IMG/VR virus record: IMGVR_UViG_3300026097_000001
DNA from: a virus
Lineage: Duplodnaviria; Heunggongvirae; Uroviricota; Caudoviricetes
Strand: one strand, 5' to 3'
DNA length: 64,000 nt
Made by a program: the position numbers and the translations under genes. The notes under the pieces are model-generated. The model made no database searches, had not been told where the DNA came from, and saw only the letters and a list, made by a program, of their open reading frames with translations. Each line of letters begins with the position of its first letter. Positions within the stretch are counted from its first letter, which is position 1. This document shows, piece by piece, positions 23,326 to 48,159 of the stretch.

Positions 23326-24429
23326 ATGGCATTAAAATCAAACGGATCAACCTTCCTAGATGATAATCGAAACTATAGCGCAACAGCAAACACTGCGCTG
23401 GCAAATGATGCATATATCCTAATCGCAAACAACGATAGTGTTTCTTCTGATGGTTATTCGATATCCGATACAAAAGCGATTGCTGACGACGGTTTTGCGT
23501 TTAATCAGTTTAATGCGGAAGAGCAGGTGCTTAGTTTTAAAGATGCCCCAACGCCAAACGCATACGGATCAATAAGTGGATATGTTTCCGGTGGATCTAG
23601 TCCTTCACCTACAGACACACCAATTCAGGCTACGATAGAAAAGTTTTCTTTTGCATCGGATGGTAATGGGACTCTTGTTGGTGATTTAACACAAGCAAGA
23701 ACTAGTATACCTGCCGGACAATCGAGTGCCGAATCGGGCTATACTTCTGGTGGGTCCGCGCCACCTCAAACAACAACGATCGATAAGTTTCCTTTTGCTG
23801 CTGATGCTAACGCAACAGACGTCGGAGATTTGACACAAGCACGATCGGGCGTATCAGGACACTCGAGCGATGCGTCAGGCTACACATCTAACGGCACTTT
23901 GCCAGGGTTTGTAAATACAATTGACAAGTTTCCTTTTGCTACAGATGCAAATGCAACTGATGTTGGCGATACAACAGACGCCCGTGGATATTCTTCAGGT
24001 ACTTCGAGCTCAGAGAGCGGTTATTCTTCAGGTGGTTTCTCACCAAATGAAGTTAATAAAATTGATAAATTTCCTTTTGCATCTGATACAAATGGAACAG
24101 ACGTTGGTGATTTAACTGTAGCAAGATATTATGCTGGCGGAAACTCAAGCGATACTTTTGGTTATGCGTCCGGAGGAATAGGTCCTAGCAACAGGTCAGA
24201 AATCGACAAGTTTCCTTTTGCTGCTGATGCAAACGCGACTGACGTTGGCGATTTGGTAACCGCAACTAACTCATTAGCAGGTTCAAACAGTACCACATCG
24301 GGTTATTTGGCCGGAGAAAACCCCGGGACGATACAAAAGTTCCCCTTTGCGACTGATTCTAACTCAACAACCGTAGGTGATTTGACCGCGTCCGTAGGTA
24401 GGATTGGGCCAGCAGGCCAACAGGTATAA
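23326..24429 (+). CDS. Six-repeat putative beta-propeller protein, paralog 1
   Basis: Six repeats of GYxSGG...IDKFPFA.DxNxTDVGDL...GQS, ending GQQV. Confidence 0.75.
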   Translation: MALKSNGSTFLDDNRNYSATANTALANDAYILIANNDSVSSDGYSISDTKAIADDGFAFNQFNAEEQVLSFKDAPTPNAYGSISGYVSGGSSPSPTDTPIQATIEKFSFASDGNGTLVGDLTQARTSIPAGQSSAESGYTSGGSAPPQTTTIDKFPFAADANATDVGDLTQARSGVSGHSSDASGYTSNGTLPGFVNTIDKFPFATDANATDVGDTTDARGYSSGTSSSESGYSSGGFSPNEVNKIDKFPFASDTNGTDVGDLTVARYYAGGNSSDTFGYASGGIGPSNRSEIDKFPFAADANATDVGDLVTATNSLAGSNSTTSGYLAGENPGTIQKFPFATDSNSTTVGDLTASVGRIGPAGQQV

Positions 24430-24432
24430 TGA

Positions 24433-25509
24433 ATGGCTTTACAGTCGAATGGAATAATCTTTCTCGATGATAATAAAAACTTTTCAGCGCAAGGAAATAC
24501 AGTTCTTGCGAACGATGCTTCTATACTTATTGCAAACAACGACTCGGTATCTGGCGATGGTTATGCCATCATAGACGAGAAATCGATCGCAGACGACGGT
24601 TTTGACTTTAATCAGTTTAATTCAGAAGAGTTTTCGATAAGTTTTTTAGAAGGTTATAAGTTTCAAGGTACAGTGAGTGGATACACCTCTGGAGGGAGTC
24701 CTGGAGAGGTTACGATTGATAAGTTCCCATTTGCTTCAGACGGTAACGCGACTGGCGTCGGCGACTTAACAAGGGCTACTTATGGACTTGCCGGATCGTC
24801 GAGTGAAGAGTCAGGTTATACATCAGCCGGGCAATCGCCATCGGTATTTGATATAATTGACAAGTTTCCATTTTCAACTGATGCAAACGCAACGGACGTA
24901 GGCGATCTTACAATAGGAAGGTTTAGTCCGGCGGGTCAATCGAGTGAAGAGTCAGGTTACGTTTCAGGAGGGGATGTACCTGGATATTCTAACGTGATCG
25001 ACAAGTTTCCATTTTCAACTGATGCAAACGCGACAGACGTAGGTGACCTATCTCAAGCAAGGCCAGCAAGCGGAGGTCAATCCAGTGATGTTTCTGGGTA
25101 TACCTCAGGTGGAGGTAATGTATTGGCAACAATTGACAAGTTTCCATTTGCATCAGACGCTAACGCAACCGACGTAGGTGATTTAACAGTCGCAAGATCA
25201 AATACTCCGGCTGGCCAATCGAGTGAAGAGTCGGGTTATGCATCGGGCGGTTTTGGTCCGAGTTTTTCAAACGTTATTGATAAGTTCCCATTTGCTTCAG
25301 ACGGTAACGCAACGGACGTTGGCAATCTAACTCAAGCAAGATATTATGCCGCTGGGCAATCGAGTGATACGTCCGGCTATACATCAGGTGGTACGACGCC
25401 GCCTCATGCCAATACGATCGATAAGTTTCCATTTGCTTCGGATGGGTTTGCCGCCGATGTTGGTAATCTAGCACAGGCAAGATCAGCTGCCGCCGGGCAA
25501 CAAGTATAA
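24433..25509 (+). CDS. Six-repeat putative beta-propeller protein, paralog 2
   Basis: Same six-repeat architecture; its ~75-aa N-terminus is similar to paralog 1. Confidence 0.75.
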   Translation: MALQSNGIIFLDDNKNFSAQGNTVLANDASILIANNDSVSGDGYAIIDEKSIADDGFDFNQFNSEEFSISFLEGYKFQGTVSGYTSGGSPGEVTIDKFPFASDGNATGVGDLTRATYGLAGSSSEESGYTSAGQSPSVFDIIDKFPFSTDANATDVGDLTIGRFSPAGQSSEESGYVSGGDVPGYSNVIDKFPFSTDANATDVGDLSQARPASGGQSSDVSGYTSGGGNVLATIDKFPFASDANATDVGDLTVARSNTPAGQSSEESGYASGGFGPSFSNVIDKFPFASDGNATDVGNLTQARYYAAGQSSDTSGYTSGGTTPPHANTIDKFPFASDGFAADVGNLAQARSAAAGQQV

Positions 25510-25512
25510 ATA
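25505..25512 (+). promoter_or_regulatory. T4-type late promoter overlapping the stop codon of paralog 2
   Basis: GTA TAA ATA creates an exact TATAAATA. Confidence 0.65.
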
Positions 25513-25539
25513 GTCTAAAGATTTATAAGGATTTTATGA

Positions 25540-26517
25540 ATGCCTATTTCAATTAACAAAAGCTCGATTAACTTTGGTACCTATAGTATCTCGTTGCATC
25601 CTGATGGAATCGAGATCGACGGTAAGTTCAAGTACGGGTCGTATGGGACTCCACCCCCGCCACCTCCCACTGCATATGGTACAGTAAGTGGGTATACTTC
25701 AGGCGGTCGGTCATCGGGTGGTTATTCAAATGTAATCGACAAGTTTCCTTTTGCGAGCGACGCAAACGCAACTGATGTTGGCAACCTAGCTACATTATTC
25801 TCAGCAAGAGCCGGGCAGTCTAGTTCATCTTCTGGTTATGTGTCTGGGGGGTATAGCCCAAACACAACTACTATTGAAAAATTTCCTTTCGCAACTGATG
25901 GTAATGCAACAGACGTCGGTGATCTTACTCAAGGAAGGAACAGCCCGGCCGGTAATGAAAGTTCAGAGTCTGGTTACACTTCAGGCGGATACAGCGGTGG
26001 CGTTCAAAACACGATAGATAAATTTCCATTTGCAACCGATGCGAATGCAACTGATGTTGGTGATTTGACTCAAGCAAGGAACAGCGTGACTGGTCAATCA
26101 AGTTCGGTGAGTGGATATAATTCAGGCGGAGGCTCTCCTCCGAATACTACTACGATAGACAAGTTCCCATTCGCAACAGACGCAGATGCAACTGACGTTG
26201 GGGATCTAACGCAGGCAAGAAGAAATACAGCCGGGCAGAACAGCGATGATAATGGATACACTTCAGGAGGAGAATCTCCTATTGTTAATATCATCGATAA
26301 GTTTCCTTTTGCATCCGATGCAAATGCGACTGACGTCGGTGACTTAACACAAACGACCCGTGAAGCTGCAGGTCAATCGAGTACAGTGAGCGGATATACT
26401 TCTGGCGATGACATGACAAATGTAATCGACAAGTTTCCTTTTGCATCCGATGCAAATGCGACTGACGTCGGTGACTTAACACAAGCAAGAAAAAATGTCG
26501 CTGGACAACAAGTATAA
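25540..26517 (+). CDS. Six-repeat putative beta-propeller protein, paralog 3
   Basis: Six repeats, a PPPPPP linker after the N-terminal segment, ending GQQV. Confidence 0.75.
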   Translation: MPISINKSSINFGTYSISLHPDGIEIDGKFKYGSYGTPPPPPPTAYGTVSGYTSGGRSSGGYSNVIDKFPFASDANATDVGNLATLFSARAGQSSSSSGYVSGGYSPNTTTIEKFPFATDGNATDVGDLTQGRNSPAGNESSESGYTSGGYSGGVQNTIDKFPFATDANATDVGDLTQARNSVTGQSSSVSGYNSGGGSPPNTTTIDKFPFATDADATDVGDLTQARRNTAGQNSDDNGYTSGGESPIVNIIDKFPFASDANATDVGDLTQTTREAAGQSSTVSGYTSGDDMTNVIDKFPFASDANATDVGDLTQARKNVAGQQV

Positions 26518-26554: not shown

Positions 26555-27115
26555 ATGAGTGAACACCAGTTTAATGTATTTAATACACCTATTTGGGGTC
26601 ACGTGTTAAGTCATGAAAAGTACCAGACCGAGGACTACCTTGAACGAGTCCTCGAGATCTACGACAGCGAACCATCCGCAGAAAAGAGTAACGCGGGTGG
26701 TGGTTGGCAGTCGAGAGACGATCTTCACAAAGAACCTATCTTTAAAGAGTTTATAAACAATACTCTCTTAAAATCAATCTCACAACCAATCCTGAAAGAA
26801 TACGGAATTGAAGATTTTGGTATTCAGAGTATGTGGGCAAATGTCAATCAAAAACATTCTTTTAATTACCAGCATACTCACGAGGGTTATCTCTCGGGTG
26901 TATATTATCTAAAGGTTCCGAAGAACAGCGGTAGATTAGTATTTACAAATCCAGCCGTTCGCAGTGAGTCCCATCCTATTCGTCAAAAGAACTATCCGGT
27001 AGTTCCACAAGAACTCGCATGTATTGTTTTTCCAAGTTGGCTCGAACACTACGTGGAACCGAATATGTCAGACGAAGCAAGAGTAAGTATTAGCTTTAAC
27101 GTAGGTAGATTATGA
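26555..27115 (+). CDS. Putative 2OG-Fe(II) oxygenase (TIGR02466-like)
   Basis: SMWAN.N.....NYQHTH...LSGVYY...GRLVF...IVFPSWLEHYV..N....RVSISFN. Confidence 0.8.
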   Translation: MSEHQFNVFNTPIWGHVLSHEKYQTEDYLERVLEIYDSEPSAEKSNAGGGWQSRDDLHKEPIFKEFINNTLLKSISQPILKEYGIEDFGIQSMWANVNQKHSFNYQHTHEGYLSGVYYLKVPKNSGRLVFTNPAVRSESHPIRQKNYPVVPQELACIVFPSWLEHYVEPNMSDEARVSISFNVGRL

Positions 27116-27684
27116 AACACCAAAAGATACAGATAAACGGCCGTGATATCGATATATACGATGATCTCTTTTCCTTTGATGAAGTAGCAAGAATGTTCAT
27201 TAAGGTTCGTCAGTACGCGTATACTGCAACAAACTTTAGCGACGGATTTCGTTCTCACATATACGGAGAAAAGCATAAACTCAAGTACACATTTGGATCA
27301 CGTGAAGAAGCAACTGAGTTTGGAATTATAAATAGACTCAATAGCGTGGATCAAAACATCGCTAAGAATTATATCGTTCATCGTCAGTATGTAAATCTTG
27401 CAACAACGAGCGATTTCGACACGATTCATATCGATGATAACCATCTAGAAAAACCAAAGACTGTTCTATATTATCCACATCCGGATTGGAACATTCATTG
27501 GGGAGGACATACATTCTTCTTTAATGAGACGCTCGATAATATAGAATATGCTGCGGCATATAAACCAGGGCGGTTGGTTGTTTTCGATGGATTGATTCCA
27601 CACTGTGGTTCCCCGCCCTTTAGTGGCGCTCAAGATAAAAGATACGTTGTGACTTGCAAATTTCAATATACGAATGGAGAATGA
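27112..27684 (+). CDS. 2OG-Fe(II) oxygenase, prolyl-hydroxylase-like
   Basis: IHIDD (HxD), YY....W...WGG.T.F, GRLVVFDG..PH, R.V. Confidence 0.78.
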   Translation: MKHQKIQINGRDIDIYDDLFSFDEVARMFIKVRQYAYTATNFSDGFRSHIYGEKHKLKYTFGSREEATEFGIINRLNSVDQNIAKNYIVHRQYVNLATTSDFDTIHIDDNHLEKPKTVLYYPHPDWNIHWGGHTFFFNETLDNIEYAAAYKPGRLVVFDGLIPHCGSPPFSGAQDKRYVVTCKFQYTNGE

Positions 27685-27690
27685 TTGATT

Positions 27691-29043
27691 ATGACTAATA
27701 CCGCGAATTATTTTGACCAGAATGGTTATGTTGTATTACAAAATGTTTTAACAAAGGAACAGTGCGACTCTCTTGTCGAACATATGTTTCAACTACACGC
27801 CGATGGAAAACTCGTTCAGGACGATCAGTGTCCACTGTCGGATGCTGTATACGGCGATGAGAAGTTTGATACGCTCCTACAAAACATTGCTGAGCCGCTA
27901 GGTAAAGCCGTTGGTAAGAGACTACTTCCAACTTATTCCTATGCTCGCATCTACCGTCCTGGTGACGTACTCAAAAAGCATAAGGATAGACCAGCCTGCG
28001 AGATTAGTACTACTCTTACTCTCGGATACGACGCAAAGGTTAACTGGCCAATTCATTTTGCGAACGACGATGGTACGATCGAGTCCGCAGTAGCAATGGA
28101 ACCTGGTGAGATGGCTGCCTATAAGGGTACCGAGATGGTTCATTGGAGAAAACCATTTAAAGGTAACTGGCACTGTCAAGTATTCCTACATTATGTAGAT
28201 GCAGATGGTCCACATGCAGATCAGGCAATGGACGGTCGTACTTCTCTAGGAGTTGATAAGAACCAAGAGACTCTTCGTCAGACGAATGCAAAGGAAGAAC
28301 CGAAACCAGTTCAACAGAATGCGGTTCAGCAGGCGAAGGCTGAAGGTAAGACGATCGTGAACCAACCGGTAATTAAAAAGCCAACGGCTCCAAACAACGA
28401 AATGTTGATCCCGGATCCAGTCTTTGGTGGCGTTATGCTACCAGGTCGTGATAATACTCTTCCTGGATACTATCCGATTAATAAGGATACGTTTCCTAAC
28501 CTTATGTTTACGAATGATGAATGCGATCGTATTATTCAGATCGCGAAGGACTCATATTCCGCGTCTGCAAGCGTAGGTGGTGGCGGTAAGGGTAGCGTTG
28601 CTCGTCAGATCCGTTCAGCTGAGATCTATCCGGTTGAAAACGTTGAAGAGAACCGTTGGATCTTTAAAAAGATCGCTGATATTGTGTCAGTCGCAAATGC
28701 CGTTCATTTTGACTACGATGTAACTGGTATCGAGTATTCGCTGCAGCTTATTCACTACGCATCAGACGCTGAAGTACCAGGCCACTATGACTGGCACGTC
28801 GACGCGGGTAACGGTACTGTCGCGACTCGTAAGATATCCTTTACAGCTCAGCTCACAGATTCAAATGCATATACGGGTTGCGATCTAATAGTTGACGACC
28901 ACGGAAATAAAATTCAGGCAGTTCGAGATCGAGGTTCTATCTCAATGTTCCCGAGCTATATGCCACACGTAGTTACTCCAATTGAAACAGGAGATCGTTA
29001 TGCTCTTGTGATTTGGATCCATGGACCAAGGAGGTTTAGATAA
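27691..29043 (+). CDS. Tandem two-domain 2OG-Fe(II) oxygenase
   Basis: Domain 1 has LKKHKDRPACEIS...HWR; domain 2 has YDWHVD...RKIS...FPSY.PH.V.P...G.RYALV.W. ATG at 27691. Confidence 0.82.
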   Translation: MTNTANYFDQNGYVVLQNVLTKEQCDSLVEHMFQLHADGKLVQDDQCPLSDAVYGDEKFDTLLQNIAEPLGKAVGKRLLPTYSYARIYRPGDVLKKHKDRPACEISTTLTLGYDAKVNWPIHFANDDGTIESAVAMEPGEMAAYKGTEMVHWRKPFKGNWHCQVFLHYVDADGPHADQAMDGRTSLGVDKNQETLRQTNAKEEPKPVQQNAVQQAKAEGKTIVNQPVIKKPTAPNNEMLIPDPVFGGVMLPGRDNTLPGYYPINKDTFPNLMFTNDECDRIIQIAKDSYSASASVGGGGKGSVARQIRSAEIYPVENVEENRWIFKKIADIVSVANAVHFDYDVTGIEYSLQLIHYASDAEVPGHYDWHVDAGNGTVATRKISFTAQLTDSNAYTGCDLIVDDHGNKIQAVRDRGSISMFPSYMPHVVTPIETGDRYALVIWIHGPRRFR

Positions 29044-29044
29044 T

Positions 29045-29995
29045 ATGGAAGAAGAAAAAAAGACCACTCGCGAGCTAGCAGTCTTTGAGGAGATTCGTAA
29101 GAGTGATATCGTAACGGCAGAGGACGCCGAAAAAATGAAGGTACCGATGGCTATGGTCTTTGGCCATGGAACCACTGGTAACCTTCCTAGCTTCGGTAAC
29201 AAGACTCTCAACGAGAACTCTGAGTTAGTTGATGCTGCTCTTAAGAACGTTGGCGAGTTAGGAAACATCTGGAACCACAGCCATACACAATGGATGTGGA
29301 AGCATATTAACTTTAGCTATCATAGCCCACATAAGAATATGCGTCAGATCTCGGCTGAACTGTCAAAAAAGAAGTCGGCTCTTAACGAGGCTAAGTGGCG
29401 TCATATTAAGAAGGAAGCTAAGATCCGTAAGCTGCAGGAAGAACTTCAGGAAGCGGTGAACCTTGATTATTGGAGAGAGGTGGATCTCAAAATTAAACTC
29501 GCGGAACTTCAAGAAGGTGCTATCGAGGGTATGACCTATATCGAGGGTGCTATGAAGGACGTCCTTGCGCTTCAAGAGATCTACGAGGACCTCAAGGAAA
29601 AGGCAAGTGGTTTCTCTGAGCACGATATTGAAAAAGAAGAGTCGATTACTCACCTAAAAAGAAGTATCGTTCAGTGTATTCGAGACGTTCGCCAATCCGG
29701 TCGGATTACAAAAGGTGAACAGGAATATATGGAGCAGATCGGTGTTAACCCGAGCAAGATGCAACGTATTATTCAAGAGTACGTAAAGAAAGAAGTCGAG
29801 CAGGATTCTTGGGGTAGCGAAGGACTGTTTGAATTTGTTGATGGCCTTTCTCGTGAACTCATCGAGAAACATAAGGTAGACATTACTCGTATGGAACTTC
29901 TTGGATATGATCCAAATCCAAACGAAGCTATCTCTTTCTCAAATAAGGTTGCGTTGCTCGACAACTTTACAGCAGAAGAGAACGATGAAGAATAA
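29045..29995 (+). CDS. Hypothetical coiled-coil-rich protein
   Basis: ATG at 29045 follows the upstream stop; long helical charged segments; no recognised motif. Confidence 0.6.
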   Translation: MEEEKKTTRELAVFEEIRKSDIVTAEDAEKMKVPMAMVFGHGTTGNLPSFGNKTLNENSELVDAALKNVGELGNIWNHSHTQWMWKHINFSYHSPHKNMRQISAELSKKKSALNEAKWRHIKKEAKIRKLQEELQEAVNLDYWREVDLKIKLAELQEGAIEGMTYIEGAMKDVLALQEIYEDLKEKASGFSEHDIEKEESITHLKRSIVQCIRDVRQSGRITKGEQEYMEQIGVNPSKMQRIIQEYVKKEVEQDSWGSEGLFEFVDGLSRELIEKHKVDITRMELLGYDPNPNEAISFSNKVALLDNFTAEENDEE

Positions 29996-30755
29996 CTTCT
30001 ACGATAGGTTTGTAGAACTAAAGAGGTATACCGATAGAGTTGGATCCATATACGGAACAGAAGACTTTTCGGTATACCTCTATTCTATGATTAAAATGAT
30101 GAAACCCGAGATCGTTGTTGAACTAGGAACAGGCCTCGGTTCTGCTATGTTATGGTCAGGCCTTGCTCTCGAGGAGAATAAGTTTGGTACGATACATACG
30201 GTAGATGACGGTAGTGAATGGTATCGCCTTAAGACTGCAAAGAATGCAATGGGTGATCATTATCGTGATGATTATAATGATTTCATAACGGATTTAATTC
30301 AGAAGTACGAGGTACAGGATCGAGTACACTTTTTAAACCAAAGGATCGATGTATTGGATCTAAAGAACATCGATATACTCTTTTCTGATTTTGCTCACGG
30401 AGTCTTTGACGTAACAAAATTATTAGTTGATTATATTCCAAAGATGAACGACCATTCTAAAATATATATTGATAGCGCAAGTACTCATTATTCTTCTTAC
30501 ATGGCAATTAATCGTATAGTCGATATATTAAACAGTGGAAGAATACCTAGAACGTTTTACGAAGTATTTGAAAGCAAAAATAATTTACAAAAAGAATACA
30601 ATATTGAAAATTTAAAACAAAAAGTCGAGAATACAACGTTTAGTGTAGAACATATGGTCGAAAATAAAGACAGAGACCAAAACAGTACATGTTGTATTAC
30701 TCTTACACCAATTGATATTTTTCCCTATCCAAGGAAGAATATAAGATCATTATAA
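29985..30755 (+). CDS. Class I SAM-dependent methyltransferase
   Basis: IVVELGTGLGSA glycine-rich motif, IHTVDD, DILFSD. ATG at 29985. Confidence 0.72.
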   Translation: MKNNFYDRFVELKRYTDRVGSIYGTEDFSVYLYSMIKMMKPEIVVELGTGLGSAMLWSGLALEENKFGTIHTVDDGSEWYRLKTAKNAMGDHYRDDYNDFITDLIQKYEVQDRVHFLNQRIDVLDLKNIDILFSDFAHGVFDVTKLLVDYIPKMNDHSKIYIDSASTHYSSYMAINRIVDILNSGRIPRTFYEVFESKNNLQKEYNIENLKQKVENTTFSVEHMVENKDRDQNSTCCITLTPIDIFPYPRKNIRSL

Positions 30756-30756
30756 T

Positions 30757-30807: not shown

Positions 30808-31143
30808 ATGGCTGTAATAGAATATATGCTTCACAGAATTAATGGAAGTGCACGCGCTGAAATACCAGGTTGGGTCGGCGATCGTGGTCACTGGTTCAAC
30901 CCAGCGGACAACACATACATTGGTTGGGTAGACGACGTTCGTGATTACTACGTACCCGACACGGTTACATCTTTCACAAAAGCTGAGTTCGTAACGCGTC
31001 TACTTACAATGCATGGAACAACACCGTTTCAGAATATGAACAACGAGGATCCTGATGTGGCTCCAACGAATATGACTGATGCTGAAGTGACTACGATGGC
31101 TGAAACCTGGTACGACGATTTTGTAGCTAAGAACGGTAGCTAA
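30808..31143 (+). CDS. Hypothetical protein, 111 aa
   Basis: Strong GGAGG RBS and a late promoter upstream. Confidence 0.7.
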   Translation: MAVIEYMLHRINGSARAEIPGWVGDRGHWFNPADNTYIGWVDDVRDYYVPDTVTSFTKAEFVTRLLTMHGTTPFQNMNNEDPDVAPTNMTDAEVTTMAETWYDDFVAKNGS

Positions 31144-31145
31144 TC

Positions 31146-31274
31146 ATGGAATTAATTCTTGCAAAAAAGATTGAGGACCTTGACTTCGATGAGTTACTCG
31201 AGGTCCTACGAAAATTTGAGATGGAAGACCGTGATGCGTTTAATCTTTTACAAGAGTTAGTTGAAGACGTTTAA
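31146..31274 (+). CDS. Small acidic protein, 42 aa (not in the ORF track)
   Basis: MELILAKKIEDLDFDELLEVLRKFEMEDRDAFNLLQELVEDV starts 2 bp after the previous stop and fills the gap. Confidence 0.55.
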   Translation: MELILAKKIEDLDFDELLEVLRKFEMEDRDAFNLLQELVEDV

Positions 31275-36381: not shown

Positions 36382-36411
36382 ATAAACTATATTGAACAAG
36401 GAGTCTATACT

Positions 36412-37822: not shown

Positions 37823-37824
37823 GC

Positions 37825-38043: not shown

Positions 38044-38045
38044 AT

Positions 38046-38053
38046 TATAAATA
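38046..38053 (+). promoter_or_regulatory. T4-type late promoter
   Basis: Exact TATAAATA upstream of 38085. Confidence 0.75.
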
Positions 38054-38084
38054 AAAGAAAACAGAATAAGTTTAGGGTGTAAAA

Positions 38085-39707: not shown

Positions 39708-39710
39708 ATA

Positions 39711-40177: not shown

Positions 40178-42142
40178 ATGGTTAGATTTATATCCGATTC
40201 TACCGTATCGGGTAGAATAACAAAAACTCCGTCCGATGAGGTATCTGAAGAAAGATATGAGTTTATTACTTTATCTGAAACAGAACCAGATCTCGGTGTA
40301 CCTAATGCGAATGGTTACATACTTACATCTGATGAAGATGGTACACGTAATTGGATAGACGGAAGTACTATCTTTGGACCTCAAGGTATCCAGGGTATCC
40401 AAGGTATTCAGGGTCTTCTTGGTGTTCAGGGTGCACAAGGTCTCCAAGGTACAAAGGGCGATCCATTTAAAGTTTTAGGATCCGTTCCTGATGTTAATGT
40501 AGATCCACCGAACGATCCTCAGGCCACACTCACGGCTGCGTTTCCTACTCCTTCTCTCGCAGACGGTGTAATTGACGAAGCAACCACAGATCTCTGGGTT
40601 TGGAATGGAACTGATTGGATTAACACCGGAGACATCGTTGGCCCTCAAGGTATCCAAGGTATTCAAGGTATATCTATACAAGGTACACAGGGTATTACCG
40701 GTGAGCAAGGCGTCCAAGGGATACAAGGTATTGACGGCGCACAGGGTGCTCAAGGTAGCCAGGGTATTCAAGGTATCACTGGAACTGGTGCTCAAGGTAT
40801 CCAAGGTACTGACGGAACTGGTAATCAGGGTATTCAAGGTGTCCAAGGTATCACTGGAGAACAGGGTATTCAAGGTATCACTGGTGAGCAAGGTGTTCAA
40901 GGTACTGCTATTCAAGGTACGACTGGCGAACAAGGTATTCAGGGTATTACTGGAGAACAAGGCGTTCAAGGTATTACTGGTGCCGGAGAACAGGGTATTC
41001 AGGGTATTACTGGCGAACAGGGTATTCAGGGTACTGACGGAACTGGTAATCAAGGTATCCAAGGTATTCAAGGTATACAAGGTATTACTGGAGAGCAGGG
41101 TGTTCAGGGTATTCAAGGTACTGCTATCCAAGGTACAACGGGTGAGCAAGGTATCCAAGGTATAACTGGTGAACAGGGTATTCAGGGTACTGACGGAACT
41201 GGTAACCAGGGTATTCAAGGTATCCAAGGTATCACTGGTGCTCAAGGCATTACTGGTGAACAAGGTATTCAAGGTACTGATGGAACTGGTAACCAGGGTA
41301 TTCAAGGACCTCAAGGTACGCAGGGTATAACTGGTGAACAAGGTATTCAGGGTACCGACGGAACTGGTAACCAGGGTATTCAAGGACCTCAGGGTCCTCA
41401 AGGTATTACGGGCGCCGATGGTGTTGATGGTGGAACTGGTGCCCAAGGTGTTCAAGGTACAGTTGGGCCGCAAGGTATCCAAGGTATTACTGGTGCTGAT
41501 GGTGCAAACGGTGGAACTGGTGCCCAAGGTATTCAGGGTACGACTGGCGCTCAAGGTGTACAAGGTGTTCAGGGTATCCAAGGTATTACCGGAGAACAGG
41601 GCATTCAAGGTATAACTGGTGCTCAAGGTATACAAGGTATTACTGGAGAGCAGGGTGTACAGGGTATCAACGGTGGCCAAGGTATCCAGGGTATTCAAGG
41701 ACCTGAGTCGGCAAGTGCTTCAGCAACTGAACTACAAGCAACAAACGACACTACAACTGATGCCGATTTCTACCCAGTGTTCGTAGCTGCAACTGGATCG
41801 GTTCAAACGGTAACATCAACCGCCTCTAAACTATACTTTAACCCATCATCTGGAGAGCTATCAGCAACGAGCTTCAATTCACTATCAGATGCTACAGTTA
41901 AAGAAAATGTTCAATCGATCGAGGATAGCTTCTCAATGCTTGACAAGATTGATACATATAAGTTTAATTGGAAAGACACAAAAGAACTAAGCTACGGTGT
42001 TATGGCTCAAGAACTTGAAAAAGTAATGCCAGAATTGGTAAGAAAGAACGGAAAAGGACAAAGAACAGTTTCTTATATTCCGTTAATCGCAATCATGATC
42101 GACGCGATAAATAAACTAAAGGAAGAAGTTGACAAAAAATAA
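40178..42142 (+). CDS. Collagen-like tail fibre with a C-terminal S74 chaperone, cassette B gene 3
   Basis: About 140 Gly-X-Y triplets (mostly GIQ/GIT/GEQ); NSLSDATVKEN...YGVMAQELE...VSY at the C-terminus. Confidence 0.85.
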   Translation: MVRFISDSTVSGRITKTPSDEVSEERYEFITLSETEPDLGVPNANGYILTSDEDGTRNWIDGSTIFGPQGIQGIQGIQGLLGVQGAQGLQGTKGDPFKVLGSVPDVNVDPPNDPQATLTAAFPTPSLADGVIDEATTDLWVWNGTDWINTGDIVGPQGIQGIQGISIQGTQGITGEQGVQGIQGIDGAQGAQGSQGIQGITGTGAQGIQGTDGTGNQGIQGVQGITGEQGIQGITGEQGVQGTAIQGTTGEQGIQGITGEQGVQGITGAGEQGIQGITGEQGIQGTDGTGNQGIQGIQGIQGITGEQGVQGIQGTAIQGTTGEQGIQGITGEQGIQGTDGTGNQGIQGIQGITGAQGITGEQGIQGTDGTGNQGIQGPQGTQGITGEQGIQGTDGTGNQGIQGPQGPQGITGADGVDGGTGAQGVQGTVGPQGIQGITGADGANGGTGAQGIQGTTGAQGVQGVQGIQGITGEQGIQGITGAQGIQGITGEQGVQGINGGQGIQGIQGPESASASATELQATNDTTTDADFYPVFVAATGSVQTVTSTASKLYFNPSSGELSATSFNSLSDATVKENVQSIEDSFSMLDKIDTYKFNWKDTKELSYGVMAQELEKVMPELVRKNGKGQRTVSYIPLIAIMIDAINKLKEEVDKK

Positions 42143-42177
42143 GTCACTTCTAGTTTTATGATGGAGTGAAATATATT

Positions 42178-43248
42178 ATGAGTTTTTTCGAAAACACTAA
42201 AGACGGACAACAGGTTGAAAGTACATACCAATACGGTAATAATGATAGCTTAGCAAGAAACGTTTTAAATGATGGGGGTGACATACACCCCCTCATTATC
42301 CCTTCTAATCTTACAAACGGTACAGGTTTAATGAACCCGTCTATATTAAATATAGACGGTAAACTTGTTGTAAATATAAGACATGTAAACTATACGTTTT
42401 ACCATTCAGAAAGAAAACTGTTTCAGCATCCATGGGGCCCGCTTACGTATCTTCATCCTGAGAACGATATGCACTTGCGAACAGAAAACTATTACTGTGA
42501 GCTAAATGATTCCTTTGAGATATCTCGATTTAATAAGATCGACACGAGTAAGTTCGATACATATGAACCTATGTGGGATTTCGTTGGCCTTGAGGATGCT
42601 CGTCTAATTGAATGGAACGGAAAACTATTTACATCCGGTGTTCGACGTGATACAACTACAAACGGTCAAGGAAGGATGGAACTCTGTGAAATTGAAGTAC
42701 GTGATGATAGCGTAGTTGAGGTTTCAAGATGGAGAATTCATCCGCCAAAAGATAAGAACTCATATTGTGAAAAGAACTGGATGCCAGTTGCGGATCGTCC
42801 GTTTGAATATGTAAAGTGGTGTAACCCAGTCGAGGTTGTAAAAGTTGCGGAAACACCAACCGACGATAAAGTATTCGAGTCAAATTGGGTTGAGTCTGAA
42901 ACGGTACACTTACAGGCATCTGGTAACTTTTTAAGTAAGGATCCTCGCGGTGGATCGCAGGTAATACCGGTAGGAGACAACTACCTAACACTTACTCACG
43001 ATGTTGATCTATTTAAGAGCGAGGTTGGTCGAAAGGACGGTGTATATCGTCACCGCTTTATTCTATTCGATAAGGATTGGAATATCATTAAGTATTCAAA
43101 AGACTTCTCACTTATGAACGGCCATACCGAGTTTGCAGCTGGTATGTGTCATTATAAAGATAAGATACTTATTACATTTGGTTTCCAAGATAATGCTGCT
43201 TTTGTATTAGAAGTAAATCCAAAAACAATTGAAAAGATGTTAGGTTGA
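42178..43248 (+). CDS. Putative glycoside hydrolase-like five-bladed propeller protein
   Basis: NPSI, GLEDARL, EKNWMP, RGGSQ, EFA.G motifs recall GH43/GH130-like folds. Start could be GTG 42166 or ATG 42178. Confidence 0.55.
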   Translation: MSFFENTKDGQQVESTYQYGNNDSLARNVLNDGGDIHPLIIPSNLTNGTGLMNPSILNIDGKLVVNIRHVNYTFYHSERKLFQHPWGPLTYLHPENDMHLRTENYYCELNDSFEISRFNKIDTSKFDTYEPMWDFVGLEDARLIEWNGKLFTSGVRRDTTTNGQGRMELCEIEVRDDSVVEVSRWRIHPPKDKNSYCEKNWMPVADRPFEYVKWCNPVEVVKVAETPTDDKVFESNWVESETVHLQASGNFLSKDPRGGSQVIPVGDNYLTLTHDVDLFKSEVGRKDGVYRHRFILFDKDWNIIKYSKDFSLMNGHTEFAAGMCHYKDKILITFGFQDNAAFVLEVNPKTIEKMLG

Positions 43249-43262
43249 GAGGAAACAATATC

Positions 43263-45125
43263 ATGAATAGAACTGACATTATACAAACTCTCATAAACCA
43301 TGTAAAGGCAAAAAGCTATCTTGAGATAGGAATATCAGCCGGTGATAATTGGGAAAAAATACGTTGCGAAAACAAAGTAAGTGTTGATCCAGAACCACTT
43401 GCGAAGGCAGATATTGTTTTAACATCAGACGAATTCTTTAAACAAAATAAAGAAACGTTTGATGTTATATTCGTAGATGGTCTTCACCACGCAGACCAAG
43501 TATATCGCGACATCACAAATGCTCTCGATGTTTTAAACGAAGGTGGTTACATCGTATGTCACGATATGAACCCTTTAAAGAAAGAACATCAGGTTATACC
43601 TTTTAACGGTGGCACCTGGAACGGCGACTGTTGGAAAGCGTTTGTTGAATTGAGAAAGGATCGTGAAGATCTTGAAATGTACACAGTGGATACAGATCAT
43701 GGCTGTGGTGTTATTCGTAGAGGTACACAAAAAACCATTGACATTCAATATCCAATGGATAAATTAGAGTTTGAAGACTTTAACGAAAATAGAGCTGAAT
43801 GGTTAAATCTTATTAATCCTGAAAAGTTTAGAAAAATGTTTGGTCTTAATGATCTAAAAACTCTAGTTAAAACATATATCATGGATCCAAACAACCCAGA
43901 GAATAACTGGGCATTGGCTCTACGATATGATGGTTTAGGTCAACTTGCGTCTGCTGTTTCATTTTACATCCGAACGGCTGAAAGAACTGATGACGATCTA
44001 CTTAAATATGAATGTCTTATTCGTGCTGCGATGTGTTTTGAGAAACAAGGTACGCGCAGATTTACAGTAAAGGGTATCATACAACACGCGATCGCAACTC
44101 AGCCTCATCGCCCAGAAGGATACTATCTACTCAGCCGGTTCTACGAGAATGACCCTGGAGACGGTAAATGGTTTGACTCGTATACCACCGCATCGATTGG
44201 CTACTCCTTTGCAGACGACGTTCTAGAGCCTCTCAGGACAGAAGTGGATTATCCTGGTAAACACGCGCTGCTGTTCCAAAAAGCTCATACTGCCTGGTGG
44301 TGTGGACTTGGTGAAGATTGCAGAAGTATACTAATGGATCTTTACACAAACTATGATCTGAAAGAAGAGTATCGCAATGCCGTATATGAAAACTTGTCAA
44401 GATTAGGTGCATTCCAATCAAAGAGCCTTACACTATATACAAAAGACAAACATAACGAGCTTGCAAACCAATTTGGTGGTTCTGAAAACATCGAACAGAA
44501 CTATTCGGAAGCGTATCAAGATATGTTTGTCCTTACTCTATTCGGTGGTAAAAAGAATGGCAGTTATGTTGAAATTGGATCTGGACATCCGACGTATGGA
44601 AACAACACGTACCTCTTGGAAAAAGACTACGGATGGAATGGAGTATCCCTTGATATTAGTGAACAGTTCGTTGCTCAGCATAATCAAGAAAGAAAACATA
44701 CCTGTCTTCTCAAAGATGCAACTACGGTGAATTATGAGCCGTTCCTCAGTGGTCTTGGTTTTGGCAAGGATATCGACTACCTTCAGATCGACTGCGATCC
44801 ACCTGAAATAAGTTATAAGGTTCTACTTTCAATTCCATTTGATACAAGACGATTTGGTGTAATTACATTTGAGCACGACCATTATGCAGATCCAAACGGT
44901 GGTTATCGTGAAAAGGCTCGTAAGTACCTTGCAGCCTACGGTTATCAGTTGGTCGCAGGTAACATATCACCGGATAAAGATAGACCATACGAAGACTGGT
45001 ACGTACACCCCGACATTATAAATATCGATATGTTTGGAGCCTTAAAGAATACTGGTGATTCTACAAAAATGGCTGAAGATTATATGATGGGCAGAACTAC
45101 ACGTGACAAAGCAAAAGCAGCTTAA
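43263..45125 (+). CDS. Methyltransferase-TPR-methyltransferase (FkbM-like) fusion
   Basis: N-terminal YLEIG...FDVIFVDGLH; central TPR-like helices (P.RPEGYYLL); C-terminal YVEIGSG.P..GNNT...IDYLQIDCD...ITFEHD. Confidence 0.72.
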   Translation: MNRTDIIQTLINHVKAKSYLEIGISAGDNWEKIRCENKVSVDPEPLAKADIVLTSDEFFKQNKETFDVIFVDGLHHADQVYRDITNALDVLNEGGYIVCHDMNPLKKEHQVIPFNGGTWNGDCWKAFVELRKDREDLEMYTVDTDHGCGVIRRGTQKTIDIQYPMDKLEFEDFNENRAEWLNLINPEKFRKMFGLNDLKTLVKTYIMDPNNPENNWALALRYDGLGQLASAVSFYIRTAERTDDDLLKYECLIRAAMCFEKQGTRRFTVKGIIQHAIATQPHRPEGYYLLSRFYENDPGDGKWFDSYTTASIGYSFADDVLEPLRTEVDYPGKHALLFQKAHTAWWCGLGEDCRSILMDLYTNYDLKEEYRNAVYENLSRLGAFQSKSLTLYTKDKHNELANQFGGSENIEQNYSEAYQDMFVLTLFGGKKNGSYVEIGSGHPTYGNNTYLLEKDYGWNGVSLDISEQFVAQHNQERKHTCLLKDATTVNYEPFLSGLGFGKDIDYLQIDCDPPEISYKVLLSIPFDTRRFGVITFEHDHYADPNGGYREKARKYLAAYGYQLVAGNISPDKDRPYEDWYVHPDIINIDMFGALKNTGDSTKMAEDYMMGRTTRDKAKAA

Positions 45126-46668
45126 AAACTTTCCAACAGTATACTATCTTTCTTTAAAAGATTCCTTAGAGCGGCAGCGTGACCTCGAGTCGCAGCTGTC
45201 CTCGAGAGGAGTATCCTATCAGATGGTGGAAGGATATGATGGAAGAACCGTTGATATTCGAGACCAATTGAACATAACCGGTCCACACCTAAACCCAGAA
45301 GGTATTTCATCGGAAGTACTCTCGGTTGCCGTTTCACATTTACATATGATATATCGTTGGTATACAGAGACCGATGAAGAGATTGGTTTCTTTTGTGAGG
45401 ACGATATTAATTTTTCTCTTGTAGATCATTGGAACTTTGACATTGATGAATTTGTAGAGCGTTTGCCAAACGACTGGCAAGTTATGCAGATGTCACTTAT
45501 TAAGGAAGATCCTGTTAATTACAGTGACATGAGAATAAGAAGAAAGCGATGGAACGATTGGTCCTGTTGCGCGTATATGATGCGCCGAGAATATGCAAAG
45601 GAAATACTCGACGATTTTTACGACGAGGAAACGAATACATATAACCTCAAGATCAAGGAAACAAAACATTTTCCTTTGCCTGAGAACGTAATCTATCCTT
45701 ATAACTATAAAAGATGTTATGTGTTTCCGTTCTTTACAGAGAACAGAGTACACGACTCGACATTAATTAGACAAGACAATAAAGACAGCATAGATACCAT
45801 TCAGGACCAGAGCAGCAAGTTTATAACTGATTGGTGGCAAGAAAATGGAAAAGATATTAATATAAAGGAGTTGGTGAATATGGTAGATAAAATTCCAGTC
45901 ATAGGAGCGCCGGTTGTAAATAGTACATATTGGATCTCAAGACTTATTATGAGCGTTGATTATCCGGTTGAAAACTTCGTGATCATTAACAACAACGGTC
46001 GTGGGGAACTCGATGAGGAGCTCGATCGCTTAGTTAAGATAGATCACAAGTTCATTGATAACATCAAGGTAGTACATATGCCGGCTAACGTTGGCTGCGC
46101 AGGAGCTTGGAACCTTATTATTAAATGTTACATGTTGGCGCCGTATTGGATTATCGCAAACGATGACGTTGCATTCGGTCCTGGGTTGTTGGCTGAGATG
46201 GTTGAGAGAGTAAACGGTGACCCGGTCGTAGGTATGATACATCCGAACGCAGGAGACTTTGGAGTTGGCGCATGGGATCTATTCCTTATTCGTGAGAACG
46301 TTGTCAAGGTATTTGGATTGTTCGATGAGAATACATATCCTGCATACTGTGAAGATGCCGACTACATTATGAGAATGTCACACCGTCCTATTCGAAAGAT
46401 CGTTGGTCTAGAGAATAAATATATGCATGGACATGGTGATAGTACAATGTACTATGAGACCGGTAGCCAGACAGAAAAGAATGAAGAAGGTCTTAAAGAA
46501 AAACTGGATCATTCGAATAATTTAAATATCGAGTATCTTACACGCAAGTGGGGCGTAGGTTGGAGAAAGTTATCTCCGAATAAAGAAGTATTTGAAGGAG
46601 AAGAAACTCCTATCTCAACTACTACGTACGATTTAGATTTTGTTAGACAAAAACATTTAGGTTTCTAA
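45103..46668 (+). CDS. Two-domain glycosyltransferase (GT25-like plus GT2-like)
   Basis: N-terminal VYYLSL....ER, VEGYDG, VSHL, CEDD; C-terminal IINN.G, NVGCAGAWN, IANDDV, FDEN.YPAYCEDADY. Confidence 0.72.
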   Translation: MTKQKQLKNFPTVYYLSLKDSLERQRDLESQLSSRGVSYQMVEGYDGRTVDIRDQLNITGPHLNPEGISSEVLSVAVSHLHMIYRWYTETDEEIGFFCEDDINFSLVDHWNFDIDEFVERLPNDWQVMQMSLIKEDPVNYSDMRIRRKRWNDWSCCAYMMRREYAKEILDDFYDEETNTYNLKIKETKHFPLPENVIYPYNYKRCYVFPFFTENRVHDSTLIRQDNKDSIDTIQDQSSKFITDWWQENGKDINIKELVNMVDKIPVIGAPVVNSTYWISRLIMSVDYPVENFVIINNNGRGELDEELDRLVKIDHKFIDNIKVVHMPANVGCAGAWNLIIKCYMLAPYWIIANDDVAFGPGLLAEMVERVNGDPVVGMIHPNAGDFGVGAWDLFLIRENVVKVFGLFDENTYPAYCEDADYIMRMSHRPIRKIVGLENKYMHGHGDSTMYYETGSQTEKNEEGLKEKLDHSNNLNIEYLTRKWGVGWRKLSPNKEVFEGEETPISTTTYDLDFVRQKHLGF

Positions 46669-46669
46669 T

Positions 46670-47398
46670 ATGAAAAATTGGATTATACAAGAAGAAGAAC
46701 ATTTTCATGAAGAGGTGGTTGAAGAAGCCGTTCAGCCGCAAGAAGATGAGATTGTTCACGAGGAAGAACAGAATCCGGTATATATGATAAACCCGGATCT
46801 TCAGGCAAACAAAAGAGCGTTTGTAGTTGATAACTTTTACGCGGATCCTTATGCAATGCGTGACTATGCATTGCAGCAGGAATACTTTGATGATCCTGGT
46901 TATATCGGAAGAAGAACGAGAACGCAGCACCTGTTTCCTGGTCTTAAAGAAACTTTCGAGAGCATCATCGGCGAAAGGATTAGCGAGTGGGAAACCTATG
47001 GAATGAACGGTAGGTTTCAACACAACTTTGCTGGCGAAAAGTTAGTATATCACTGTGACCAACAGAAGTGGGCAGCTATGATATATCTAACACCAGATGC
47101 TCCACCTCAGACTGGTACGAGTACTTATGTGCACCGAGAAACAAAAGTACACCATAACTCTCAGATCAATTGGGAAGACGGCACAGGCGCAAAGGTATTT
47201 CCTGGAAAAACGTTCCTTGATAAGACTCCATTTGATACTGTTGACTCATTTGGGAATATCTTTAATCGTTTGGTTATATTCGAAGGTGGATCAATTCACG
47301 CTGCTTCAGAGTACTTTGGTAGCGATATACACGACTGTAGATTATGGCAAATGTTCTTTTTCGATGGGGAAGAATCAAGAATACATTTAGGAGATTGA
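46670..47398 (+). CDS. 2OG-Fe(II) oxygenase-like protein (DUF6445-like)
   Basis: VVDNFY.DP, YHCD (HxD), WAAMIYLTP, GTS.Y, FNRLVIF....IHA, R..Q.FF. Confidence 0.72.
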   Translation: MKNWIIQEEEHFHEEVVEEAVQPQEDEIVHEEEQNPVYMINPDLQANKRAFVVDNFYADPYAMRDYALQQEYFDDPGYIGRRTRTQHLFPGLKETFESIIGERISEWETYGMNGRFQHNFAGEKLVYHCDQQKWAAMIYLTPDAPPQTGTSTYVHRETKVHHNSQINWEDGTGAKVFPGKTFLDKTPFDTVDSFGNIFNRLVIFEGGSIHAASEYFGSDIHDCRLWQMFFFDGEESRIHLGD

Positions 47399-47400
47399 TA

Positions 47401-48159
47401 ATGAAAGTTGTTTTAGTTTCTGGCGGATTTGACCCAATTCATTCTGGTCATATTGCATACTTTAACGAGGCAAAGAAGCTGGGTGATATCCTAGTCGTAG
47501 GTGTAAACAGTAACGAATGGTTGACTCGCAAGAAGGGTCAGCCGTTCATGGATATAAACGAAAGGGTTGAGATCGTAAAGAACCTTTCGGTAGTCGATAC
47601 GGTTATGGTTTTTGACGATAGTGACGGTGGCGCAAGTCAGGCAATTCGTAACTGTTTAGTTATGTATCCGGACTCTGAGATCATCTTTGCAAACGGTGGA
47701 GACAGAACAGATGATAATATTCCAGAGATGAAGATCGACGATCCAAGATTATCTTTTGTATTTGGAGTAGGCGGAGTTCACAAGATGAACTCCAGCAGTA
47801 AGATACTTACCGAATGGAAAACTCCAAAAACAGAAAGGAAATGGGGATACTATCGTGTACTTCATTCAGACGGTCCTTCCACAAAAGCAAAGGAACTCGT
47901 TGTTTCTCCAGGTAAGTCTTTGAGTCTTCAGAGACACGAGTCACGTAGTGAATATTGGCTCGTAAGTTACGGAGTTGCGACAGTTAATCATGGAAATGAT
48001 CTTGATAATATTCAAACTTCAATACTTGAAAAGCACGATGAGATTGATATTCCTGTAGGTACTTGGCACCAGCTTATAAATAATACAGATGATGAAGTAC
48101 GGATCGTAGAGATCCAGTACGGAACAAATTGTATTGAAGAGGATATCGAGCGCGTCTAG
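47401..48159 (+). CDS. Cytidylyl/nucleotidyltransferase fused to a cupin (mannose-6-phosphate isomerase type II-like C-terminal domain)
   Basis: SGGFDPIHSGH HIGH-like motif, RKKG, ANGGDR; C-terminal WG.Y.VL...PG.SLSLQ.H..RSEYW, WHQL. ATG at 47401. Confidence 0.8.
   Translation: MKVVLVSGGFDPIHSGHIAYFNEAKKLGDILVVGVNSNEWLTRKKGQPFMDINERVEIVKNLSVVDTVMVFDDSDGGASQAIRNCLVMYPDSEIIFANGGDRTDDNIPEMKIDDPRLSFVFGVGGVHKMNSSSKILTEWKTPKTERKWGYYRVLHSDGPSTKAKELVVSPGKSLSLQRHESRSEYWLVSYGVATVNHGNDLDNIQTSILEKHDEIDIPVGTWHQLINNTDDEVRIVEIQYGTNCIEEDIERV

Follow-up and report, generated by a model that had tools for sequence, protein, structure and literature searches.

Between positions 23326 and 48159 of a 64,000-nucleotide stretch of DNA from an uncultured, aquatic T4-like phage (IMG/VR record IMGVR_UViG_3300026097_000001; we call the whole stretch the window), genes for propeller proteins and collagen-like fibres are interleaved with genes for oxygenases and for enzymes of sugar, sulfate and methyl transfer. 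We read this span, at about an even chance, as a pair of cassettes, transcribed late, whose enzymes would modify the appendage proteins of the phage itself while these are still in the host cytoplasm: cassette A (~23.3–36.4 kb), built around propellers, and cassette B (~36.4–48.2 kb), built around fibres. A more specific proposal, that a large group of uncultured aquatic T4-like phages tailor their own receptor-binding parts with a double hydroxylase and its sulfotransferase and methyltransferase partners on fast-evolving Kelch heads, and with a methylated-sugar cassette on collagen-like/S74 fibres, we put somewhat short of even. An earlier reading made from the letters alone (the sequence-only reading) had listed structural repeats interleaved with four oxygenase, two methyltransferase, sulfotransferase, dehydratase, GT25+GT2 and nucleotidyltransferase-cupin genes, and family matches bear out that inventory.

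Co-inheritance gives the better evidence, and points to two separate cassettes, A with propellers and B with collagen-like/S74 fibres. We compared more than 250 related viral contigs, fetched from IMG/VR by anchor (gp13, 80 loci; hydroxylase, 78; propeller, 67; GH130-like gene, 80), labelling open reading frames (ORFs) by BLASTP against the window proteins. Cassette A comprises a propeller array, (sulfotransferase), (OXY5), (FlmC-like enzyme), NOXY3, u29021, u30808 and (MT24a), parentheses marking variable members. NOXY3 is a fused two-domain hydroxylase. Of 35 unique loci that encode it, 31 have propellers nearby, and in the remaining four the contig stops within 340 nt upstream. Where only shorter, non-fused NOXY3 homologues occur, a propeller is found in 0/28 loci; co-occurrence of enzymes and propeller repeats across relatives was a check that the sequence-only reading had proposed. 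Conversely, 35/61 propeller-anchored loci carry NOXY3, and most of those without it run into the end of their contig. Propeller, NOXY3 and u29021 by themselves make up a minimal cassette, which stands between gp13 and gp14 in L101–L103 and L220 and after gp15 in L204 and L206; its members therefore move as a unit and do not just share one insertion hotspot.

Cassette B comprises fibre, small ORFs, GH130-like gene, FkbM methyltransferase, (GT25(+GT2)), (DUF6445) and (nucleotidyltransferase-cupin). Upstream of the GH130-like gene, a collagen-like/S74 fibre gene ends at a distance of ≤3 kb in 25/39 loci, whereas downstream windows of equal size hold one in 2/37; with 5-kb windows the counts are 27/36 upstream and 1/18 downstream. 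Long upstream ORFs that have no collagen repeats still bear S74. The FkbM-type methyltransferase comes after the GH130-like gene in 64 of 66 unique GH130-anchored loci. Among GH130-anchored loci with at least 1.5 kb upstream, 42/48 have no gp13 in the locus, and in close relatives cassette B, with its nucleotidyltransferase-cupin gene, lies upstream of gp13 in 36/38, whether propellers are near or not. By locus content, the hydroxylases go with the propellers and not with the collagen genes. In relatives, ORFs of ~870–1000 residues best match u42166, MT24FkbM, GT25GT2 or DUF6445 (L262/L263, L276, L302–L309). Such enzyme–enzyme fusions, together with chaperone–DSBH (double-stranded β-helix) fusions, suggest that the cassette enzymes act as one pathway and tie them to fibre assembly.

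The enzymes share 73–98% identity with their counterparts in the three nearest relatives, which is comparable to gp13 (83–88%). They appear to be under purifying selection and match core virion genes in conservation. Propeller identity to the same relatives is only 53–70% (53–69% for PRO4–PRO7); on these identities the propellers seem to evolve much faster than both the enzymes and the core virion genes.

The sequence-only reading had also placed all of these genes on the + strand behind late promoters, and the counts agree. The window holds 21 copies of the late-type box TATAAATA, on the + strand only, against 5.0 ± 2.5 expected on both strands (~fourfold). Eleven lie within the span: eight are 24–43 nt ahead of an ORF start (among them those at 26555, 35551 and 37481), one is at 78 nt and two are internal. 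The operons beginning with OXY5, SULFO and GT25GT2 are directly preceded by such boxes, and further boxes stand before 25540 (27 nt) and before 38085. In box, enrichment, coding strand and spacing, the arrangement looks like that of T4-type late transcription units. Sigma-70-like sites in the window are at chance level (40 against 39.6), on which count early promoters in the span were rejected, and terminators likewise reach chance level only. The cyanophage transcriptome literature that we searched makes no mention of 2-oxoglutarate (2OG) oxygenases. Hydropathy analysis found no membrane segment in 38 window proteins: no 19-residue stretch reaches a Kyte–Doolittle value of 1.6, the maximum being 1.45, and the enzymes of the span are predicted to be soluble.

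Propellers and hydroxylases of cassette A

Seven paralogues with six 47-residue repeats each lie in the span, all on the + strand, as PRO1–PRO3 (23326–24429, 24433–25509 and 25540–26517) and PRO4–PRO7 (31293–32279, 32323–33237, 33238–34227 and 34255–35247); an eighth, PRO8, starts at 49801. In the alignment of PRO1–PRO3, identity to the first paralogue (23326) is 53–61%. An AlphaFold2 model of PRO4 (predicted local distance difference test, pLDDT, 93; predicted template-modelling score, pTM, 0.86) matches KLHL2/3/12, Keap1 and the designed SAKe propellers in Foldseek (E 1e-19 to 1e-17), with template-modelling (TM) scores against solved Kelch domains of 0.77 by query and ~0.9 by target. On this model the family is predicted to fold as a Kelch-type six-bladed β-propeller. 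Pfam Kelch families give no match at E ≤ 0.01, only sub-threshold, chance-like ones; the propellers form a separate sequence family, phrog_19111, with more than 5000 metagenomic relatives, some of which match Pfam TIG (PF01833) or Mtd_N (PF18454). The Synechococcus phage S-SKS1 (host strain WH7803) is the only cultured phage matching the family, and its propeller gene adjoins an OXY5-type gene. Downstream of PRO7, u35275 (35275–35520, +; 81 residues), with TATAAATA 24 nt upstream, joins a PRO7-like N-terminus to a single propeller blade and may be a one-blade remnant, either a decayed paralogue or a one-blade protein.

The repeat, which includes the segments S-G-Y-T-S-G-G-x-x-P and I-D-K-F-P-F-A-S-D-A-N-A-T-D-V-G-D-L, has a conserved loop. 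The full motif D-x-N-x-S/T is present in 920 of 1246 propeller repeats, and in the longer loop D-x-N-A-T-D-V-G-D nearly every position is 84–94% conserved over the same 1246 repeats (Ala, 90%). We considered a plain N-glycosylation sequon and dropped it, the flanking Ala, Asp, Val and Gly being equally conserved. Neither an oligosaccharyltransferase nor a GT41-type enzyme is among the Pfam matches of the window, to which the search for them was confined.

The span contains four oxygenase genes with five oxygenase domains. OXY5 (26555–27115, +) matches 2OG-FeII_Oxy_5 (Pfam, 3e-20) and TIGR02466 (9e-25) and has TATAAATA at 26513, 34 nt upstream; it has no H-x-D/E pair and shows an H-T-H-E stretch instead. 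OXYflmC (27112–27684, +) matches 2OG-FeII_Oxy_3 (Pfam, 1.2e-6) with a triad H106-x-D108...H164, and is a distant relative of the FlmC family (NF052475, 8.9e-20, far under the cut-off). NOXY3 (27685–29043, +; 452 residues), whose C-terminal half matches 2OG-FeII_Oxy_3, is modelled by AlphaFold2 (pLDDT 83) as a DSBH at 1–190, a disordered linker of ~60 residues and a second DSBH at 255–452. Both triads (H99-x-D101...H153 and H371-x-D373...H428) are invariant across 36 homologues. The top fold matches of the C-domain are the Pseudomonas putida prolyl 4-hydroxylase (P4H) PPHD with EF-Tu (Z score 20.4) and the Trichoplax prolyl hydroxylase (PHD; 18.6), followed by the PBCV-1 collagen P4H (17.3), a Dictyostelium PHD (16.4) and the mimivirus lysyl hydroxylase (14.5). 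By this model the C-domain would belong to the protein prolyl-hydroxylase fold class, its best matches all being enzymes that hydroxylate proteins. The N-domain has a generic 2OG oxygenase fold (6n1f, Z 17.4). The fourth gene, DUF6445 (46670–47398, +; Pfam, 8.2e-11), sits in cassette B directly after GT25GT2 and is a candidate DSBH oxygenase with H128-x-D130...H210; a single-sequence search of the Protein Data Bank (PDB) gave no match to it. In one relative it is fused to a GT17 domain (L033:6798–8396, +, 533 residues).

The NOXY3 N-domain is also homologous to T4-GC 615, labelled 'ferrochelatase' in cyanophages and pelagiphages (S-SSM5 34202–35322; Mosig 43207–44735). This label is probably wrong, because the modelled N-domain has a 2OG/Fe(II) oxygenase fold with an intact H-x-D...H.

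A fifth oxygenase, which the sequence-only reading had put at 16471, did not hold up. The gene x16471 forms a pair with u15905 (15905–17004, +, overlapping at ATGA; u15905 is a weak Phage_tail_APC match, E 0.001), matches no Pfam or NCBIfam family, and has H-T-N where H-x-D is expected. It is DSBH-like by predicted structure only, its Atlas model reaching 2OG oxygenase clusters at TM 0.59–0.66. The same model aligns at TM 0.89 to a cluster of 306-residue proteins, 95% of whose members have Phage_tail_APC, and this cluster joins a tail-fibre assembly chaperone and the x16471 DSBH-like domain in one protein. These structural models hint that some 'oxygenase-like' phage proteins serve fibre assembly.

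Also in cassette A, the Glu/Lys-rich protein u29021 (29021–29995, +) accompanies NOXY3 and propellers, occurs in 30/35 fused-NOXY3 loci and is 86–93% identical in the nearest relatives; Pfam, PHROGs, a PDB profile search, the Atlas and tblastn against cultured phages return no match to it. MT24a (29901–30755, +), a class I methyltransferase (Methyltransf_24, Pfam, 9.3e-6), is found in 11/35 of these loci. The pair u30808 plus acidic ORF (30808–31274, +; 111 residues, then 42 residues at 31146–31274) has a late box 43 nt upstream, and u30808 recurs in 30/35. An ORF of 42–43 residues holds its place after u30808 in relatives L002–L005, a conserved microprotein of the propeller cassette. SULFO (35551–36381, +; late box 27 nt upstream) is a soluble sulfotransferase of the 3′-phosphoadenosine 5′-phosphosulfate (PAPS) type (Sulfotransfer_3, 1.7e-20) and stands after the propeller array in most related loci. 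Its best solved relatives are the protein-tyrosine sulfotransferases TPST1/2 (E 3e-6), and it also weakly matches the carbohydrate sulfotransferase NoeE.

Collagen-like fibres and sugar enzymes of cassette B

Two collagen-like fibres carry an S74 chaperone: COL1 (20935–23322, +; Collagen 4e-48, Peptidase_S74 4.9e-13; chaperone intramolecular and C-terminal), just upstream of the span, and, within it, COL2 (40178–42142, +; Collagen 5.6e-47, Peptidase_S74 1.1e-13). Their repeats are of the Gly-Ile-Gln, Gly-X-Thr and similar kinds, with Gln at ~62% and Thr at 10–18% of Y positions. Among the 134 GXY triplets of COL1, Y is Gln in 83, Thr in 14, and Pro and Lys in 0; among the 119 of COL2 it is Gln in 73 and Thr in 22, with a single Pro and a single Lys. 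Hydroxylation of collagen Pro or Lys was accordingly rejected as the main mechanism, the Y positions being Gln and Thr.

Cassette B opens with DEHYD (36412–37437, +), an RmlB-like nucleoside-diphosphate (NDP)-hexose (dTDP-glucose) 4,6-dehydratase (GDP_Man_Dehyd 3.5e-51; TIGR01181 1.4e-77, below cut-off). A block of four genes follows, u37481, u37825, FIB38085 (38085–39707; a tail-fibre N-terminus protein, phrog_17885 tail fibre, 2.6e-19) and u39711 (together 37481–40175, +), which is syntenic in relatives. Its first gene, u37481 (37481–37822, +, 113 residues), recurs just upstream of gp13 in relatives that have no propellers, the order being NOXY3-like, OXY5, u37481, gp13 in L155, L159, L162 and L164.

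The sequence-only reading had called the gene at 42166 'GH-like'. Pfam gives no match to it, no PDB sequence matches, and a PDB profile search returned a chance match only; language-model features, in contrast, place u42166 (42166–43248, +) at 0.96 to an Atlas cluster in which 32% of members are Glyco_hydro_130, and homologues are annotated β-mannosyltransferase (BMT) in DSL-LC02 and MGP in S-SCSM2R (PMC12801897). By these features and homologue annotations only, the gene is putatively GH130/BMT-like (β-mannoside phosphorylase- or transferase-like). MT24FkbM (43245–45125, +) follows, with a Methyltransf_24 match (Pfam, 4.4e-12) and a weak FkbM match; an FkbM-annotated homologue adjoins the GH130-like gene in the cultured phage DSL-LC02, where the pair abuts a collagen-like gene, and S-SCSM2R carries a GH130-like and FkbM pair too. 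GT25GT2 (45103–46668, +; late box 78 nt upstream) combines Glyco_transf_25 (1.1e-5) with Glycos_transf_2 (4.8e-7); single-sequence PDB searches with GT25GT2 and MT24FkbM found no match. After DUF6445 the cassette ends with NTcupin (47344–48159, +), an RfaE-domain-II-like sugar-phosphate nucleotidyltransferase joined to a mannose-6-phosphate-isomerase-type cupin (CTP_transf_like 5.8e-14, MannoseP_isomer 4e-18, TIGR02199 2.6e-22).

The window is the reverse strand of bases 80694–144693 of a 201-kb virus record with direct terminal repeats, and its + strand carries every gene between 9 and 52 kb. Gene content was assigned with Pfam, NCBIfam and PHROGs. The neck genes gp13, gp14 and gp15, with PRO8 (49801–50769) among them, bound the region (48370–51595, +; phrog_211, T4_neck-protein 1.1e-38, T4-gp15_tss 1.4e-68); these and the small terminase stand 3′ of the span. 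At the nucleotide level, a megablast search of the phage collection with this region gave no match; the cultured phages that bear parts of the cassettes are S-SKS1, DSL-LC02 and S-SCSM2R. A psbA search (Photo_RC) has no match anywhere in the genome, which is complete at 201 kb and differs in this from typical cyanophages of the T4 type; a cyanobacterial host is therefore not required, and the phage may infect a heterotroph. Outside the window, a divergent thymidylate-synthase-family gene of 229 residues (genome 165275–165901, −; L231:1501–2190, −), far below family cut-offs, adjoins a dCMP-deaminase-like gene, a normal ThyA being encoded separately at 36135–37019 of the genome. By sequence, the divergent protein could be a dNMP hydroxymethylase.

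Candidate substrates and rival explanations

The enzymes are predicted to be soluble, apparently late and conserved, they are co-inherited with appendage genes, and one has a domain of the protein-hydroxylase class. We therefore favour virion proteins as substrates, with a confidence that stands near the midpoint. In cassette A, the propellers would probably serve as host-binding heads on a fibre, the baseplate or the neck; OXY5, the FlmC-like enzyme and NOXY3 would hydroxylate them before assembly, the sulfotransferase and methyltransferase would perhaps sulfate or methylate them, and three conserved proteins would also belong to the set. Our guesses for acceptors in the repeat are Lys and Pro within I-D-K-F-P-F, and Asp and Asn within the D-x-N-A-T-D loop. 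In cassette B, the RmlB-like dehydratase and the RfaE-II-like nucleotidyltransferase-cupin would activate sugars, and the cassette's enzymes would build a methylated glycan of 6-deoxyhexose, mannose or heptose type on the fibre, the acceptor most likely being the Thr of Gly-X-Thr triplets, as in BclA.

Several observations weigh against this proposal. From gene identities, folds, late boxes, co-inheritance, solubility and conservation we infer all substrates and all chemical steps, and modified virion proteins are a prediction. The co-occurrence counts are raw and ignore shared ancestry. The SULFO match to TPST1/2 is limited to its N-terminal 120 residues (residues 4–120), and canonical X-Pro-Gly and X-Lys-Gly sites are missing from the COL1 and COL2 repeats. 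The D-x-N-A-T-D loop may be a structural or ligand-binding loop, since its conservation exceeds what a sequon needs. Homologues of the two NOXY3 halves, each encoded by a gene of its own, occur in 223 records of cultured phages, and the propeller-bearing S-SKS1 is not among the 20 of these that were listed; in cultured Kyanoviridae and pelagiphages the NOXY3-like pair therefore probably has another substrate. The sequence-only reading had argued for virion substrates from interleaving and late timing. Its conclusion is the one we favour, on co-inheritance, fusions and fold, but that argument is weak because genes of many kinds insert between the fibre genes and gp13: Pelagibacter phage Mosig has denV, ho1 and pcyA there as well, whose products have no virion target.

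The Mosig gap is also the starting point for a rival that we rate as unlikely, in which the span is a hotspot filled with unrelated auxiliary cargo, hydroxylases acting on host proteins, small molecules or 2OG pools and sugar enzymes on metabolites. There denV, ho1 and pcyA lie beside five genes annotated 2OG oxygenase or 'ferrochelatase', S-SSM5 shows a similar mix, split NOXY3 homologues are spread over those 223 records, and the top fold match of NOXY3, PPHD, hydroxylates EF-Tu, a translation factor; roles in 2OG/NtcA signalling and DNA repair have been proposed (PMC3037559). Unrelated cargo, however, would not be expected to keep its membership while position and order change, to be fused enzyme to enzyme and, once, to a fibre chaperone domain, or to show the polar arrangement of fibre upstream of cassette B (25/39) against downstream (2/37). 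Remodelling of the host surface, to which we give a similarly low probability, would instead have the enzymes alter glycan precursors of lipopolysaccharide (LPS), capsule or S-layer on the inner face of the membrane, blocking superinfection or the sticking of progeny to debris, and travelling with fibres so as to match the receptor-binding protein. The 'LPS' and glycosyltransferase clusters of large cyanophages are usually read in this way (PMC3037559, PMC12801897), and homologues of the GT25 half occur in 99 phage records, almost all from cyanophages. Linkage of fibre and cassette is also to be expected if an enzyme must match the receptor-binding protein. Other glycan operons lie elsewhere in the genome, away from the structural genes; they suit a wider glycan programme with possibly host-surface targets and so also count against our proposal. 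Yet the window encodes no membrane-embedded transferase, flippase or polymerase, as no membrane segment was found in its 38 proteins; enrichment is confined to boxes of the late type, which is late for a surface change in a lytic cycle; and protein-hydroxylase-class domains tied to propellers are left without explanation.

Hypermodification of phage DNA against restriction, by the same oxygenases, methyltransferases and glycosyltransferases, we regard as very improbable. DNA hypermodification is a frequent function of glycosyltransferases in phages (Pyle et al. 2024, cited by PMC12619734), a glucosylation-type role has been suggested for S-SCSM2R (PMC12801897), and the divergent ThyA-family gene beside the dCMP deaminase gene is a candidate hydroxymethylase. 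That candidate, however, is separated from the window by more than 20 kb, enriched boxes are of the late type only, and the methyltransferases are of Methyltransf_24 and FkbM types, no DNA-methylase family being matched. To our knowledge, sulfotransferases, GH130-like proteins and NDP-sugar enzymes are atypical of DNA pathways. A Tet_JBP search gave no match, but its control search returned none either. Where the sequence-only reading had set aside DNA and host LPS, we find both disfavoured, with host-surface, host-protein and DNA targets each keeping some probability.

Modification of the phage's own appendages, if true, would have consequences beyond this genome. Genes for 2OG oxygenases, glycosyltransferases and 'LPS' enzymes that have no assigned substrates abound in cyanophages and pelagiphages, and some auxiliary metabolic genes of ocean surveys would be virion-maturation genes. 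Host recognition would depend on post-translational chemistry invisible in protein sequences alone, which predictions of host range made from fibre sequences would overlook. Hydroxylation and sulfation of proteins by phage enzymes would take their place beside the virion glycosylation of mycobacteriophages. The comparison yields testable units, namely propeller + NOXY3 + u29021 and fibre + GH130-like + FkbM, and names cultured phages that carry parts of them.

Comparison with known systems

Our search of the literature found no description of a propeller-plus-hydroxylase cassette or of a fibre-plus-GH130/FkbM cassette, and among the papers listed none stood out as devoted to S-SKS1; earlier guesses for such genes were DNA repair, 2OG signalling, host-surface change and DNA glucosylation (PMC3037559, PMC12801897). 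Related genes occur in cultured phages. S-SSM5, S-CAM8, S-MbCM6, Mosig and HTVC023P have '2OG-Fe(II) oxygenase' and 'ferrochelatase' genes that are 32–39% identical to the NOXY3 halves, and in S-SSM5 and Mosig the pair also stands after fibre genes. There, however, each half is a gene of its own and the two adjoin in reverse order, the C-domain-like one first, whereas in the window NOXY3 is fused and is accompanied by propellers, u29021 and u30808.

Mycobacteriophages offer a precedent for the destination of such enzymes: glycosyltransferases that they encode act in the cytoplasm on proteins of their own virions, and glycans have been shown experimentally on the C-termini of capsid and tail-tube subunits (Freeman et al. 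2023, as described in PMC12619734 and listed in PMC12801897). Here, by comparison, fibre and propeller targets are proposed from genes alone, and hydroxylases, a sulfotransferase and methyltransferases are added.

Hydroxylation and glycosylation of viral collagen are known in mimivirus, which the sequence-only reading took as its analogy. Mimivirus (L230) and PBCV-1 (P4H) resemble the present phage in encoding collagen-like proteins together with oxygenases of the P4H or lysyl hydroxylase (LH) class, the NOXY3 fold matching the mimivirus lysyl hydroxylase 6ax6 at Z 14.5 and the PBCV-1 P4H 5c5t at Z 17.3. The L230-like coupling of hydroxylase to glycosyltransferase may have a parallel here in GT25+GT2 followed directly by DUF6445, and in relatives in the GT17–DUF6445 fusion. 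Where the analogy breaks down is the substrate, the Y positions being occupied by Gln and Thr, with 0 or 1 each of Pro and Lys (134 and 119 triplets); unlike the mimivirus and animal systems of LH3 + GT25 type, the phage repeats have no canonical acceptor sites, and the P4H-class domain co-occurs with propellers, not with collagen genes.

In the collagen-like exosporium filament BclA of Bacillus anthracis, Gly-X-Thr triplets are O-glycosylated with methylated 6-deoxy sugars. Cassette B is alike in setting a Gly-X-Thr-rich filament beside an RmlB-like dehydratase, glycosyltransferases and O-methyltransferase-type enzymes; it differs in transferase families and in being a phage fibre, read from its genes, and not a spore filament. 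By this analogy, if the fibres are modified, Thr O-glycosylation would fit the collagen repeats, dehydratase and methyltransferases better than the mimivirus route.

Soluble enzymes also modify repeat-rich binding proteins in the cytoplasm in the TibC/TibA and Aah/AIDA-I heptosylation systems, to which the RfaE-domain-II-like (ADP-heptose-type) nucleotidyltransferase offers a parallel; here no GT9/BAHT-type transferase is among the window's Pfam matches, and the binding protein is a Kelch propeller, not a β-helix. Skp1 of Dictyostelium and Toxoplasma undergoes cytoplasmic prolyl hydroxylation and then glycosylation by soluble enzymes. The span likewise pairs a soluble PHD/P4H-class hydroxylase with soluble glycosyltransferases, the Dictyostelium PHD itself being among the fold matches (Z 16.4). 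In the Skp1 system the target is one proline on a regulatory protein, whereas here the proposed targets are repeated structural proteins.

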